Shown here: positions 33,521 through 39,780 of the stretch, in pieces
How positions within the stretch are numbered: the first letter of the stretch is position 1
Layout of the letters: the number at the start of each line of letters is the position of its first letter
NCBI GenBank assembly: GCA_963514005.1
Contig: OY740797.1
Location: forward strand, 25,048,001-25,112,000
DNA: 64,000 nt
From: Raja brachyura
Lineage: Eukaryota
Direction: 5' to 3'
The notes under the pieces: model-generated
What the model was told of the DNA's origin: nothing
The model's database searches: none
The model's input: only the letters and a program-made list of their open reading frames with translations
Made by a program: the position numbers and the translations under genes

Positions 33521-34506
33521 ATAGTGCCATAGTGACTGGCTTCCATATTCCTTCTGCTAAAATTCATTACTTTGCATGATGAATTCACCCTAATGTGTTG
33601 TTCCCATCTGTACTGGTTTACTCATCCAAACATTTGATACCCTCACTTCAGACAACAGTTTCGATTCTAGCCCTAACAATCACCAGTGCTGGTGGCGTCC
33701 ATTGCTTTCTGTGAGCAATTGCACTTCAGTGAACAGTTGCACTTTAGTCTGTGTTCTTTCCCACAGCCAGCCGTCAATCAATTCTGCAACCTGTCGATAA
33801 TTACTATTCTCTGATCTTTTTTCATTTATATTTTGTCGCCAACCTATTTGATATTATTTTGGAAATCGAGACATATTATATTTTCTTCATTACCATAGCT
33901 CTGTCTCTCTGTAATGTTCACGAGGTTTGGTGTTGGTCCAGCATTTTCTGTCCATTAATTATTGATCCTGTGACATTTCCTGTTACCATGAGAGTTAAGG
34001 TTATTGCACTTTTGTGCGCTGGACTCTTTCACCTCCCTTCAAAGTATTCCGTTACATGTTTGCCATTCATGTTTATTGTAACATGAATTAGTCAAACAAC
34101 GATTATCCAGACTGAAAGAATAACACCGGTAACTAAATTCTGACAGTTTCAGTATCGGGATGCCCTCACGGGCACTCAGTATGTTTCAATTTCACGGGGT
34201 ACTTGGTAGTTGCTCACTCCCAGGTCAAAATGATATGAACCCCAGCAATTGGGAGAGGGTGGTAACTGGAGATTCAATTTCCTTACCAGCAACAAGACTT
34301 CCGAAAAACACAAACTAGGATTAAAAGGCTGACGTCATCGGCATATTTGCTTATTATTAATAACGATTCGGAAATAAAGCCACGACTTTGCAGATGATTA
34401 TGCCCATCGATCTATATTACCCCTAACTCTATCACACCACCGTATTTGTCGGGTGATAAAATTCAATTTTTATCTAGATAAGTAATTAATATTAATAATT
34501 GACCAG

Positions 34507-34550
34507 GTACGCGGGAGGAAGAAGAAAGATCCGATGTTATTGGGCAACTG
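34507..34550 (+). CDS. Gene 2 cytoplasmic mini-exon A, copy 1
   Basis: gaccag| GTREEEERSDVIGQL |gtatgt, phase 1-0. Confidence 0.65.
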
Positions 34551-35424
34551 GTATGTATGAAATAAGTAAAGTTAAAATACTGCGTTTGCCTTCTGTACAG
34601 CGCAAATTAATTAGCAGTTTTATTGCCTCCAGTACCTCGCGGTAACAACCGTCCAAATGGTTTTGTCCGTTAACACGAATGCTGGATGAAAATCCATATT
34701 GCCAAGCTGATATATTGCACTCGCTTCTAAAAATCGCACCTGTTGTCTACAAAATGCCAAAGGTCTATTAAATGCTCTTACATTCACAGAGCAAAATCAT
34801 GAGTGTCTATCACGGATGCATATCTGCCGCATTTGCCCGGCACGCACAGCATGTAACTGCTGGCCACAAATTGTTTCATTTAAGTTGCCCCTTAAGCGGC
34901 TTCCCAAGCCCATGGCCGTAGTCGCAGGACAACACAACATAGATACTAATTGCAGTTCCAGCCTGTTGTCGACATCTCAGTGATGAATTCAAAATTCAGG
35001 ATCATATCAGGAGCAAAAGGTGACCATTGAGCCAATCGAGTCTATTTCCCCATACAATAGGCTTTCGGCTAATTCAACATTATTCGTCCATCTCCTCCGC
35101 CATTCATGCATATATTGTGATTCTCATGCCGGTGACAAATATAATCAGTGTTTCATCTTCATGTTGCTTTCTCAATTTCTGATAGGCGAATTTACTCCCG
35201 GTTTCAATGTCAATGCCACCCCCGCCCCCACCACCACCCATCCCCGTTTCCCTGCCGCTCCAAAATTCATTCATGATTATCAGCATCCCCGAGTGTTTAC
35301 CCTGTCAATCCCATAAAACGGCAGTATATAAATCTCAGTGAACATCCTCTGAACAGTCTCGTGTATCAATGTCCCTTGCTTTAAGTAAGGGCATCAAAAC
35401 AGTCCACATATTTTGTTGGACTGT

Positions 35425-35565
35425 AAGATAGCGGAGTCAGGGGATATGGGGAGAAGGCAGGAACGGGGTACTGATTGGGGATGATCAGCCATGATCGCAT
35501 TGAATGGCGGTGATGGCTCTAAGGGCCAAATGGCCTACTCCTGCACCTATTGACTATTGTCTATG
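35425..35565 (+). mobile_element. CR1 3' end, present only in duplication copy 1
   Basis: CR1 3' UTR with tail; absent at the homologous site (~38665) in copy 2. Confidence 0.85.
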
Positions 35566-36043
35566 GTTGTGGTTCAAACAACGCTTCGTAGATTTGAGCT
35601 AAGACTTCTATACATTTTTTGTTGCATCCCCTCAGAAGAAGACAGGCCAATGCTGCTGCACAGTCTGACATTCACTTGGAAACAGAAGCTGAATTGTGAT
35701 GTGAAATCAAATGGACAAAAATGTTGACTGTAATTTGCTTCTTTGCTTCTATAAATGCTGAGAATAAGCAAGTAAAGACGCTTACGAAGAAAACAAAGGC
35801 AATATACGGCTTGGGATGCCTCCCCCCACTATCCCCAAATTGCGATTTAATTAGCTAATCTGATCTAACTTGCTTTTGGGGGTAATGTTAGAGCAGCAGA
35901 ATGATCGACATGGTTCCCGTAGGTTATTGGCATCGGAACTATTTATGTAATGGGCCCTAGAAACCATTTTAGAGCCTGATGGTGTCGTTCTGCGCAAGAA
36001 TAAATGCACCTTTGTATAGAAGATTTATACTTTTCTCGTTCAG

Positions 36044-36151
36044 TCTATGGAACGTGCTGGTGAAGCGATGGTGTCTTATGCTGCGCTAAATTTGAGCAAA
36101 CCCCGGAAAGTTCCAAGGCGGGTGAATCAAGACAGCACGCTGTATGCACAG
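36044..36151 (+). CDS. Gene 2 ITIM exon B, copy 1
   Basis: cgttcag| SMERAGEAMVSYAALNLSKPRKVPRRVNQDSTLYAQ |gtacct, phase 0-0. VSYAAL is a canonical ITIM. Confidence 0.75.
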
Positions 36152-36353
36152 GTACCTTTTAACATACGAACTCGGACCCCCCTACTCCACTGCAAATCGG
36201 TTAACTGGTCCCACGATCGTAATTATGTATCCCTCTTGGGCTCTCACCAGTCCCTTGCCGACAGTCAACCTATCAGGGAACCATCTTACCTGTCATCTGA
36301 TGCCAGCCCCGATTAGCACTGTTTTTTCGTCGGCTCCAGTAACCCCACCCCCG

Positions 36354-36907: not shown

Positions 36908-37657
36908 TTACTATTCTCTGATCTTTTTTTTTTAATTTTGTCGCCAACCTATTTGACATTATTTTGGAAATCTAGATAGATTATAATTTCTTTATTACCA
37001 TAGCTGTGTCTCCCTGTAATTTTCACGAAGTTTGCCGTTGGTCCAACATGATTCCCCTACTGAAATCATTATGAGTACACATTGCTGTACGCTTTCTTTC
37101 CATGTTTCTATTTTCTGTCGTTAATTTCCTGTGAAAATTCATATTACCACGAAAGTTAAGCTTTTGTCCTTTTGTACACTGGACTCATTCATCCCCCGTT
37201 AGCTATTCCGTTAGTTGTTCGCCATTCATGTATATTATAACCTGAATTAGTCAAACAACGACTATCCAGACTGAAAGAATAACACCTGTAACTAAATCCC
37301 GACAGGTTGAGTATAAGGATGCCCGCACGGCCACTTCAATTTCACGGGGTACTTGGTAGTTGCTCACTCCCAGGTCAAAATGATATGAACCCCAGCAATT
37401 GGGAGAGGTTGGTAACTGGAGATTCAATTTCCTTACCAGCAACAAGACTTCCGAAAAACACAAACTACGATTAAAAGGCTGACGGCATCGGCATATTTGC
37501 TTATTATTAATAACGATTCAGCAATAAAGCCATAACGTTACACATGATCATGCCCCTCGATCTATATTAACCCCTAACTCTATGTCCACCGTCTATTTCG
37601 GGTGACAAAATTCATTTTTTAAATCTAGATAAGTAATTAATATTAATAATTGACCAG

Positions 37658-37701
37658 GTACGCGGAAGGAAGAAGAAAGATCCGATGTTAATGGGCGACT
37701 G
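37658..37701 (+). CDS. Gene 2 cytoplasmic mini-exon A, copy 2
   Basis: gaccag| GTRKEEERSDVNGRL |gtatgt. Confidence 0.65.
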
Positions 37702-39127
37702 GTATGTATGAAATCAATAAAGTTAAAATACTGCGCTTGCCTTCTATACAGCACAAATTAATTAGCTGTTTTATTGCTGCCAGTACCTCAAGGTAACAAC
37801 CGTCCAAGCTGTCCGTTAACTCGAATGTTAGATGAAAATCCATTTTGCCAAGCTGATATATTGCACTCACTTTTAAAAATCGCACCCGTGTCTGCAAAAA
37901 GCCCAGGGTCTATAAAATGCTCTTACATTCTGATCAAAATCACGAGTGCCTATCACGGATGCATATCTGCCGCATTTGCCTCCCACGCACTGCATGCAAC
38001 TACAGGCCACAAATTGTTTAATTTAAGTTTCCCGTGAAGCGCAACCTCCGGTCCATGGACATAGTCGCAGGACAACACACGATAGACACTAATTTCAGTT
38101 CCAGCCTGTTGTCGTCATCTCAGTGAAAAATTCAAAATTCCAGATCACATCAGGAGCAAAAGGTGACCATTAAGCCAATCGAGTCTATTTCACCATTCAA
38201 TAGGCTTTCGGCTGATTCGACATTCTTCGTCCACGCATGTATTGTGATTTTCATGCTGGTGACAAATAATCAGAGATTCATTTCCATGTGACTTTCTGGA
38301 GCATGACGCTCCAAAATCTCTCAATTTCTGATAGGCGAATTCTCTCCTCCTTTCCATGTCAATGCCCCCCACCCATCGCCATTTCCCGAGGCTGCTGCTG
38401 CTCCAAAATTCATTCATGACTATCAGCATCCCCGAGTATTTACCCTGCCAATCCCATAAAGCAGCAGTATGTCGATCCCCTCTCCTTCTGGGGGGGGGGG
38501 GGGGGGGGGGGGGGGTATCCAATCAGTACAGGATCAAGCTGTCCTGTCTTTCCTCGTAAAGCGAAACCCCAAAGCACCTGCTGGCATCTCAGTGAACATT
38601 CTCTGAACTGTCTCTTGTAACAATGTCCCTTGCTTTCAGTAAGGGCATCCAAACAGTCCACATAATTTGTTGTAGTTCAAATAACGCTTTATAAATTTGA
38701 GCTAAGACTTCTATACATTTTTTGATGCATTCCCTCAGAAGATGACAGGCCAATGCTGCTGCAGTCTGTCATTCACTTGGAAACAGAAGCTGAATTTTGA
38801 TATAAAATCAAATGATAAACGTATTTTTACGTATATAAATGTTGAGAATAAGCAAATAAGACGTTTGCGAAGAAAACAAATGCCATTTACGGCTTGGGGC
38901 GCCTCCCCCCGCCATCCCCAAACTGCGATTTAATTAGTTCATCTAATCTAACTTGCTTTTGGGGGTAATGTTACAGCAGGAGAAGTGATCGACATCGTGC
39001 CCATAGGTTATTGGCATTGGAACTATTCATGTAATGGGCCCTCGAAACCATTTTAGAGCCTGATAGTGCCGTTCTGCGCAAAAATCAATGCACCTTTATT
39101 GAGAAGATGTATACTTTTCTCGTTCAG

Positions 39128-39235
39128 TCTATGCAACGTGCAGGTGAAGCGATGGTGCCTTATGCTGCGCTAAATCTGAGCAACCCCCGGAAAGTTCCAA
39201 GGCAGGTGAATGAAGAAAGGACGCTGTACGCACAG
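39128..39235 (+). CDS. Gene 2 ITIM exon B, copy 2
   Basis: cgttcag| SMQRAGEAMVPYAALNLSNPRKVPRQVNEERTLYAQ |gtacct. VPYAAL is an ITIM. Confidence 0.75.
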
Positions 39236-39612
39236 GTACCTTTTAATATACGAATTCGGACCCCCCCCCCCCCCCCCCCACTTCCCGCCCACTTCCCGCC
39301 CACTCCATTGCAAATCGGTTAACTGGTCCCACGGTCGCGATCATGTATCCCTCTTGTGCTCTCACCAGTCCCTTGCCGACAGTCAGATTGAAGAAGGTCC
39401 CAACCCGAAACGTCAATTATCCAATTTAACCAGAGATGCGACCTGACCTGCTGATTGACTCTAGCATTTTGTGTCAATCTTTGGTATAAACAAGCATCTG
39501 CCCGTTCATTTTATTACTTCATTTCTGATCCTGCAAAGCGCTCGGGTCTGTGTGAGGATCAAAGCAGCTAAAAACATGAACTCATGTTTTCCCTCTAATT
39601 GTTATCTCGCAG

Positions 39613-39780
39613 ACCAAGCAGAAACCAATAGCTGGTAAAGTGATTTACGGACCTCTCGCTACAACGGGAAACAAGACAGGAGAAAACAGATATCGTTGGG
39701 ATAATTACACGGACAACTCACAGCCAATAAAGCAAATGCGAGGTGCAGATGGTATATATTCGGAATGGATTCCCAAGTAG
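39613..39780 (+). CDS. Gene 2 terminal exon C, copy 2 (intact, ITIM)
   Basis: ctcgcag| TKQKPIAGKVIYGPLATTGNK...GIYSEWIPK-TAG. VIYGPL is an ITIM and aligns with gene 1 KLIYASV. Confidence 0.75.
   Translation, partial: TKQKPIAGKVIYGPLATTGNKTGENRYRWDNYTDNSQPIKQMRGADGIYSEWIPK

Follow-up and report, generated by a model that had tools for sequence, protein, structure and literature searches.

When only the cytoplasmic exons of an inhibitory receptor gene have been duplicated, can its one ectodomain be joined to tails with different numbers of inhibitory motifs? The question is raised by gene 2, which lies in a 64,000-nucleotide (nt) stretch of the genome of the skate Raja brachyura (contig OY740797.1, positions 25,048,001 to 25,112,000; hereafter the window, numbered from its first letter). 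The leader, V-set, single C1-set and transmembrane (TM) exons of gene 2 form one open frame of 265 codons with no stop, and behind them stand two copies of the tail exons A, B and C, written A1 to C1 and A2 to C2 (Table 1), which carry immunoreceptor tyrosine-based inhibitory motifs (ITIMs). The locus is of interest as a natural, dated example of the way in which partial tandem duplication can add tyrosine motifs to an inhibitory receptor, here with two last exons, one broken and one whole, that would compete.

Layout, age and authenticity of the duplication

Self-BLAST placed about 3.1 kb following the TM exon of gene 2 in a head-to-tail duplication, 33695-36791 against 36803-39685. The direct repeats fall into blocks at 33695-35327 and 36803-38470 (81.6% identity), 35332-35418 and 38586-38672, 35566-36267 and 38669-39385 (83.4%), and 36571-36791 and 39463-39685 (86.6%). 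An earlier note on this DNA had proposed that only exons A, B and C were duplicated, with the junction inside exon C1 near 36795; the duplication of the three exons was confirmed, and the junction moves to about 36790-36792. A LINE-type repeat end (35425-35564), labelled CR1 in the earlier note, and a microsatellite (36355-36558) are confined to copy 1, as had been claimed.

The earlier note also allowed for a false duplication, in which the assembly had joined two haplotypes in tandem. None of six listed runs is marked as holding RNA, which tells nothing of expression. Contigs from four of the six (own species, and two runs from organism B) were compared with the window; their library type is unrecorded and they behave as genomic DNA. 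Organism B is a second species from another study, at least 1.3% diverged (113 changed places in run X3). In favour of an artefact, depth over copy 2 in the own-species runs is below that upstream (3.0-5.7 against 7.6 in run X1, where depth is no measure of copy number), and no contig crosses the junction among the matches listed for the own-species and organism B runs. However, the fall in depth, to about half over 38300-40022, reaches into unique sequence past the repeat, and a similar fall is seen in organism B; it is likely library bias, and less probably a one-haplotype deletion. Intron divergence between the copies amounts to 10.7% (250 of 2335 aligned sites), with 31 indels besides, and organism B contigs fit each copy separately with 96-98% likeness (copy 1: 34807-35286 and 35536-36047; copy 2: 37950-38429, 38400-39127 and 39261-40251). 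Furthermore, the predicted model XP_032892405.1 of the skate Amblyraja radiata closes with the beginning of exon C and then the peptide of this same junction, with 39 of 56 residues identical to exon C1, so that the junction predates the split of this skate and the Amblyraja lineage. An assembly artefact is rejected on these grounds as extremely improbable, and the tandem duplication, judged by sequence comparison, is real and old.

At the protein level A1-B1 and A2-B2 are equally far from the Amblyraja model (43/50 amino acids (aa) identical in each case), which suggests that the duplication took place shortly before the Amblyraja split or that the copies were converted later. One tract between the copies, 34185-34331 and 37335-37481, shows 2 differences in 150 columns, a value as low being found in 0 of 2000 permutations, and is likely a gene-conversion tract. 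Over this block organism B has one contig at about 1.5 times the local depth, with a 2-nt deletion, a pattern that indirectly reads as if both copies share the block. The block also holds a possible 38-nt exon of phase 1-0 (34224-34261) that could stand in for exon A; its frame is broken in one paralogue.

Exons, motifs and predicted joins

Internal splice sites are intact in both copies, with AG acceptors on A1, B1, C1, A2, B2 and C2 and GT donors on the A and B exons, and 4 of 72 splice-flank nt differ between A1/B1 and A2/B2. The earlier counts for exon B were exact: of its 108 nt, 10 separate B1 from B2 (7 nonsynonymous, 3 synonymous), and neither copy has lost either tyrosine. Motifs were called with the ITIM consensus (S/I/V/L)xYxx(I/V/L) as given in an excerpt of PMC8631942. 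The second tyrosine of exon B (TLYAQ followed by T or S) belongs to neither a consensus ITIM nor a consensus ITSM (immunoreceptor tyrosine-based switch motif). B2 had been said to keep EERT as in gene 1, the neighbouring receptor gene, against QDST in B1. Outgroups show QERT as the ancestral motif (Amblyraja and Mobula), so EERT is derived too and B1 and B2 have both drifted, with four derived residues in B1 and three in B2. Two changes are listed for exon A1 in organism B, a silent one and a Q-to-P replacement, and two contig records with equal change counts, only one of which covers B2, hint indirectly that B2 is unchanged.

The label of ancestral-like that had been given to A2-B2-C2 holds for exon C only. 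Exon C2 can be aligned over its full length with tails of Mobula birostris (23/54) and Heptranchias (16/55), and the fourth tyrosine of shark tails is gone from skate and ray tails. As to exon C1, the earlier note was right that the distal tyrosine is lost and the C-terminus new; the exon has no tyrosine and ends in intron-derived sequence. The loss of the distal ITIM tyrosine, however, precedes the junction: it came about here through a point change plus an adjoining 3-nt deletion, upstream of the junction. It is the junction that cost C1 its native stop, together with the last conserved tyrosine and the 3' untranslated region. Organism B is without the 3-nt deletion, and Amblyraja is without four residues around the tyrosine; the tyrosine may have been lost here and in Amblyraja in one event or in two.

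The four forms listed in the earlier note (A1-B1-C1, A2-B2-C2, A1-B1-C2 and A1-B1-B2-C2) are all in frame, and further in-frame joins are A1-B2-C2, A1-C2, A2-C2 and A1-C1. Eight of 20 possible joins reach a native stop, two of them ending in C1 (with 0 or 1 ITIM) and six in C2 (1, 1, 2, 2, 2 and 3 ITIMs). Each in-frame form with an exon B carries one to three consensus ITIMs, A1-B1-B2-C2 having three. B1-A2 and A1-A2 are out of frame, A2 fitting only directly after the TM exon, and B1-A2-B2-C2 would meet a stop 62 nt ahead of the last exon junction. It is mechanically possible, then, that one ectodomain is wired to predicted tails with one to three ITIMs.

Downstream of C1 an ATTAAA at 37470 accompanies the AATAAA hexamer of Table 1. 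Two other products were considered and set aside. Reading through the B donor would lengthen the frame by 55 or 29 codons and create the consensus ITSM TLYAQV, and no test supported its use. Exon C1 as an internal exon, with a donor-like site at 36816, would be a 97-nt exon that is out of frame; a second such site lies 690 nt further on.

Use of the two copies

Exons A2, B2 and C2 all keep their frame, stops and GT/AG sites. Neutral decay was simulated with rates set to half of those measured in the introns, in 20,000 runs for each case; A2-B2-C2 survived in 4.7% of them, or in 2.9% when the four motif tyrosines were required. B2-C2 survived in 8.0% (5.1% with the motif tyrosines), C2 alone in 22%, and A1-B1 in 22% (17% with tyrosines). 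The survival of copy 2 (P 0.03-0.05) is modest evidence that it is in use. Since copy 2 is whole at this neutral probability and Mobula hypostoma has a model with an A-B-B-C tail, use of both copies is favoured. In favour of it, too, the homologous tails of two paralogues did gather damage in each of A, B and C.

The explanation that we prefer is that A1-B1 would always be used and would then be spliced either to the broken exon C1, for one ITIM, or beyond both C1 and A2 to B2-C2, for three. We put it forward tentatively, at somewhat less than an even chance. A1 and B1, which are intact here and in the Amblyraja model, would be used by default as the exons that lie first and kept their splice sites; being first in order and having the same sites as A2 and B2, they would be spliced as before the duplication. 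The choice point would come after B1, where a transcript might enter C1, needing the hexamers at 37470 and 37523 as a new poly(A) site, or continue to B2 or C2. The simplest use of copy 2, should it be under selection, would be A1-B1-B2-C2; B1-A2-B2-C2 products would be expected to be cleared by nonsense-mediated decay. The long form would gain an alanine-type ITIM 36 residues away from the one already there, and would recruit SHP-1 and SHP-2 better for it. The residue following the phosphotyrosine (pY+1) is glycine in the C2 ITIM and alanine in the B ITIM; according to an excerpt of PMC8631942, glycine at pY+1 weakens SHP1 binding in PD-1. Leaky splicing is a more probable basis for the choice between the short and the long form than a regulated switch.

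Several points weigh against this combined use of both copies. Between the copies, A and B differ at 13 of 152 nt, not fewer than the introns do (Fisher P 0.50), and the proportions of nonsynonymous (pN, 0.088) and synonymous (pS, 0.083) differences set beside 0.107 in introns leave no purifying selection detectable. The survival of A1-B1 (P 0.17-0.22) is weak evidence for its use, and the simulation borrows its rates from the introns of this very locus and was designed when copy 2 was already known to be whole. Both the Mobula and the Amblyraja proteins are predicted. With the C1 acceptor intact and a hexamer downstream, the short form could take every transcript, and the sole skate model with an A-B-C tail of the gene 2 type, that of Amblyraja, ends in C1. 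As for the pN and pS comparison, it is underpowered and cannot tell decay from fast evolution, because the ectodomain control against a paralogue, which has few changes, does no better (pN/pS 0.033/0.053 for the V-set and 0.026/0.029 for the C1-set domain); dN/dS was rejected as a test of decay for its low power. Exon differences at the intron rate show neither decay nor selection.

The intact C1 acceptor, the ATTAAA and AATAAA hexamers, and an Amblyraja model that takes copy 1 alone and ends in the junction peptide would be expected if the proximal copy alone were used, as A1-B1-C1 with one ITIM and an intron-derived end, while copy 2 stayed a silent passenger that is whole by chance. The first 70 nt of exon C also hold six polarised derived substitutions in C2 against two in C1, and paralogues in the cluster have lost their ITIM tails entirely. 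Such use would leave the wholeness of copy 2 to its low neutral probability, however, and the junction-derived end was not kept in frame between this skate and Amblyraja; we regard exclusive use of copy 1 as somewhat unlikely.

Conversely, gene 2 might be spliced only as TM-A2-B2-C2, the ancestral two-ITIM tail, with copy 1 a decaying intronic relic. The tyrosine of C1 is gone here and in Amblyraja, copy 1 has acquired the repeat end and the microsatellite, B1 has changed ERT to DST, and an intact A1-B1 has a neutral probability of about 0.2. Yet three exons with intact and near-identical sites would have to be skipped together, and A1-B1, which two lineages have kept intact, lies as close to Amblyraja as A2-B2 does. 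Polarised changes are moreover even between the copies, 29 against 37 in introns (P 0.39) and 5 against 6 in exons. We consider use of copy 2 alone unlikely; the earlier suggestion that copy 1 is simply decaying fits exon C1 and is not borne out for A1 and B1.

It could also be that neither tail matters and both copies drift, the TM exon being mostly joined straight to an exon C in another frame, as seems to be the case in the paralogues. TM-C1 and TM-C2 joins of this kind give tyrosine-free products of 275 and 273 aa, the Leucoraja model XP_055505064.1 of a paralogue ends in this way, and exon divergence equals intron divergence. The A/B sets and C2 are nevertheless intact, with a product of the two neutral probabilities of about 0.01, which makes a stub of this kind improbable. 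At the other extreme, skate immune cells might work a splice dial, switching the ectodomain among tails with 0, 1, 2 and 3 ITIMs by way of A1/A2, B1/B2 and the two last exons. The broken C1 would then be kept as a weak-signal end, and M. hypostoma would have reached the same lengthening independently; we think such a working dial quite unlikely.

Relatives, receptor cluster and neighbouring genes

The named proteins closest to the V domain of gene 2 are those of the skates A. radiata and Leucoraja erinacea (82-83%). The Amblyraja model, named 'tyrosine-protein phosphatase non-receptor type substrate 1-like', is a likely orthologue, with 86/106 V-set, 88/100 C1-set and 43/50 A-B residues identical. 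It shares with gene 2 the junction-derived end and the loss of the same distal tyrosine; unlike gene 2 it lost that tyrosine by a four-residue deletion, has two C1-set domains and does not show copy 2. The model also includes an extra exon, whose counterpart in gene 2 (about 36251-36340) contains a stop.

In rays, the predicted M. hypostoma protein XP_062923427.1 ('tapasin-related protein-like') has an A-B-B-C tail behind V-C1-TM, which is how the predicted long form would be laid out, with no broken C visible, unlike gene 2; M. birostris XP_072135332.1 has a single B. The two M. hypostoma B units match each other at 29/33 residues and the M. birostris B at 30-31/33, far better than the skate B units (21-22/33), so that the M. 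hypostoma duplication is independent or homogenised. The same exon-sized tail modules are found in chondrichthyan SHPS-1/SIRP-like receptors (Heptranchias XP_067854359.1, Heterodontus XP_067905936.1, and Callorhinchus XP_007902824.2 and XP_007902825.2), where a module consists of YxxL, about 22 residues and TxYAQ and usually occurs twice, sometimes once or three times. The gene 2 tail, too, is built of YxxL...TxYAQ modules, and its exons B1, B2 and C2 can be aligned with the tails of rays and sharks. While these relatives read extra modules in series, gene 2 has the whole three-exon unit duplicated and two competing last exons.

For a survey of tails, 165 stored proteins were reduced to 71 with a TM segment after a C1-set domain and to 51 with a tail of at least 40 aa; these are redundant predicted models, and M was allowed at position -2. 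ITIM-like motifs numbered 0 in 7 models, 1 in 22, 2 in 16 and 3 in 6. A tail search with a Mobula protein, which found 6 proteins among 177 candidates, of 218-695 aa only, gave no skate model with C2 at its end. The number of tail modules differs between family members, and the duplicated tail of gene 2 is a new form of a trait that arises repeatedly in it.

RefSeq names this chondrichthyan V-C1-TM ITIM family SHPS-1-like. Like mammalian SIRP-alpha (SHPS-1), gene 2 has a V-set and C1-set ectodomain and an ITIM tail, and the SIRP-alpha structure 2wng is the best solved-structure match of the Mobula orthologue (E 4.6e-17). The SIRP-alpha ectodomain is V-C1-C1, whereas gene 2 has one C1-set exon between V and TM. 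NSFL1C is the human neighbour gene of SIRP. A search for its SEP domain gave no match on contig C17, the contig of the window, all 4 of 4 matches lying on C4 and C22, a weak test with a single linkage marker. Because the second C1-set domain is absent and no SEP-domain neighbour was found on the contig, we call gene 2 SIRP-like and not SIRP; the SIRP family is grouped with tetrapods in an excerpt of PMC13262535.

Changes in ITIM number by exon duplication or splicing are already familiar in immune receptors, which makes the present case neat rather than surprising. Splice variants of the long and short forms of CEACAM1 and of the PECAM-1 tail exons drop or keep ITIMs, as shown at the RNA and protein level. 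Gene 2 resembles them in having one ectodomain and tails with differing numbers of inhibitory motifs; it differs in that its options arise from a tandem duplicate and are predicted only, whereas in CEACAM1 and PECAM-1 single-copy exons are skipped. Little seems to have been published on the V-C1 ITIM receptor cluster of cartilaginous fishes: no paper on it was found in a search that did not reach Fu et al. 2019 (PRARP) and Ohta et al. 2019.

Table 1. Coordinates, in the window, of gene 2, its duplicated tail and the neighbouring genes
Feature	Position	Strand	Remarks
Leader exon, gene 2	25506..25560	+	55 nt, phase 1; GT donor; in frame with V; resembles Mobula, Scyliorhinus and Heterodontus leaders
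V-set immunoglobulin exon, gene 2	25723..26043	+	Pfam V-set 3.3e-12; 82-83% identity to Amblyraja and Leucoraja models
C1-set immunoglobulin exon, gene 2	27726..28040	+	Pfam C1-set 7.1e-12
TM exon, gene 2, single copy	31794..31898	+	hydrophobic stretch without charged residue; 87% to Amblyraja model
Tandem unit copy 1	33695..36791	+	intron end, A1, B1 and the first 70 nt of exon C
Near-identical block	34185..34331	+	shared with 37335-37481; holds possible 38-nt phase 1-0 cryptic exon 34224-34261
Exon A1	34507..34550	+	44 nt, phase 1-0; pyrimidine-poor acceptor
LINE-type repeat end, copy 1 only	35425..35564	-	92% to repeat ends 16702-16844 and 53482-53630
Exon B1	36044..36151	+	108 nt, phase 0-0; ITIM VSYAAL (consensus) and TLYAQ (non-consensus)
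CT/CA microsatellite	36355..36558	.	copy 1 only
Last exon C1, broken	36722..36907	+	no tyrosine; crosses junction into intron-derived sequence; stop after 61 codons
Duplication junction	36790..36792	+	exon C likeness up to 36791; paralogue TM-A intron likeness from 36790
Tandem unit copy 2	36803..39780	+	runs on into native exon C end
AATAAA hexamer	37523..37528	+	616 nt beyond C1 stop; possible poly(A) signal of short form
Exon A2	37658..37701	+	44 nt, phase 1-0; shifts the frame behind A1 or B1
Exon B2	39128..39235	+	108 nt, phase 0-0; consensus ITIM VPYAAL and TLYAQ
Last exon C2, whole	39613..39780	+	55 codons; ITIM VIYGPL and conserved terminal tyrosine
Gene 1	3451-11946		C1-set; TM 7185-7292; A 10631-10668; B 11659-11775; short C 11884-11946; V exon just upstream of window
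Third V-C1 gene	57250-58890		likely TM exon ~59996-60092

V-like matches in the skate's own genome number 32, all on contig C17, with 13 V-C1 pairs within 372 kb. V-C1 receptor genes form two clusters on this contig, at 24.80-25.11 Mb and 19.7-20.3 Mb, the former repeating a cassette of three to four gene types on both strands. Two paralogues in the former cluster (C17:24872321-24880760 and 24954486-24965500) have a single, broken tail of the gene 2 type: A lacks 8 nt, B has taken an insertion directly behind its first tyrosine, and C carries a frameshift. To go by these sequences, the single tail is the ancestral state and the paralogues show how the decay of such a tail looks. One paralogue has a gene-2-like and the other a gene-1-like ectodomain despite the common broken tail, and the comparison points to ectodomain-tail shuffling within the cluster. 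The TM-to-C join of a paralogue in another frame gives a tyrosine-free stub matching Leucoraja XP_055505064.1. A protein search of the own genome with B2 returned B1 and B2 only (2/2 candidates), at a low sensitivity that missed the B exon of gene 1.

At the third V-C1 gene, no tail exons were found in the next 60 kb at the score cut used. Gene 1 has a tail with two ITIM-like motifs, and read-through of its B donor would yield a consensus ITSM. For gene 2, a leader candidate at 25350-25379 was dropped since its frame does not fit the V exon, and was replaced by the exon at 25506-25560. The intron between the C1-set and TM exons of gene 2 holds an inverted repeat (28688-28968) with 140-nt arms that are 95% complementary and 1 nt between them, made up of two short repeats placed head-to-head.

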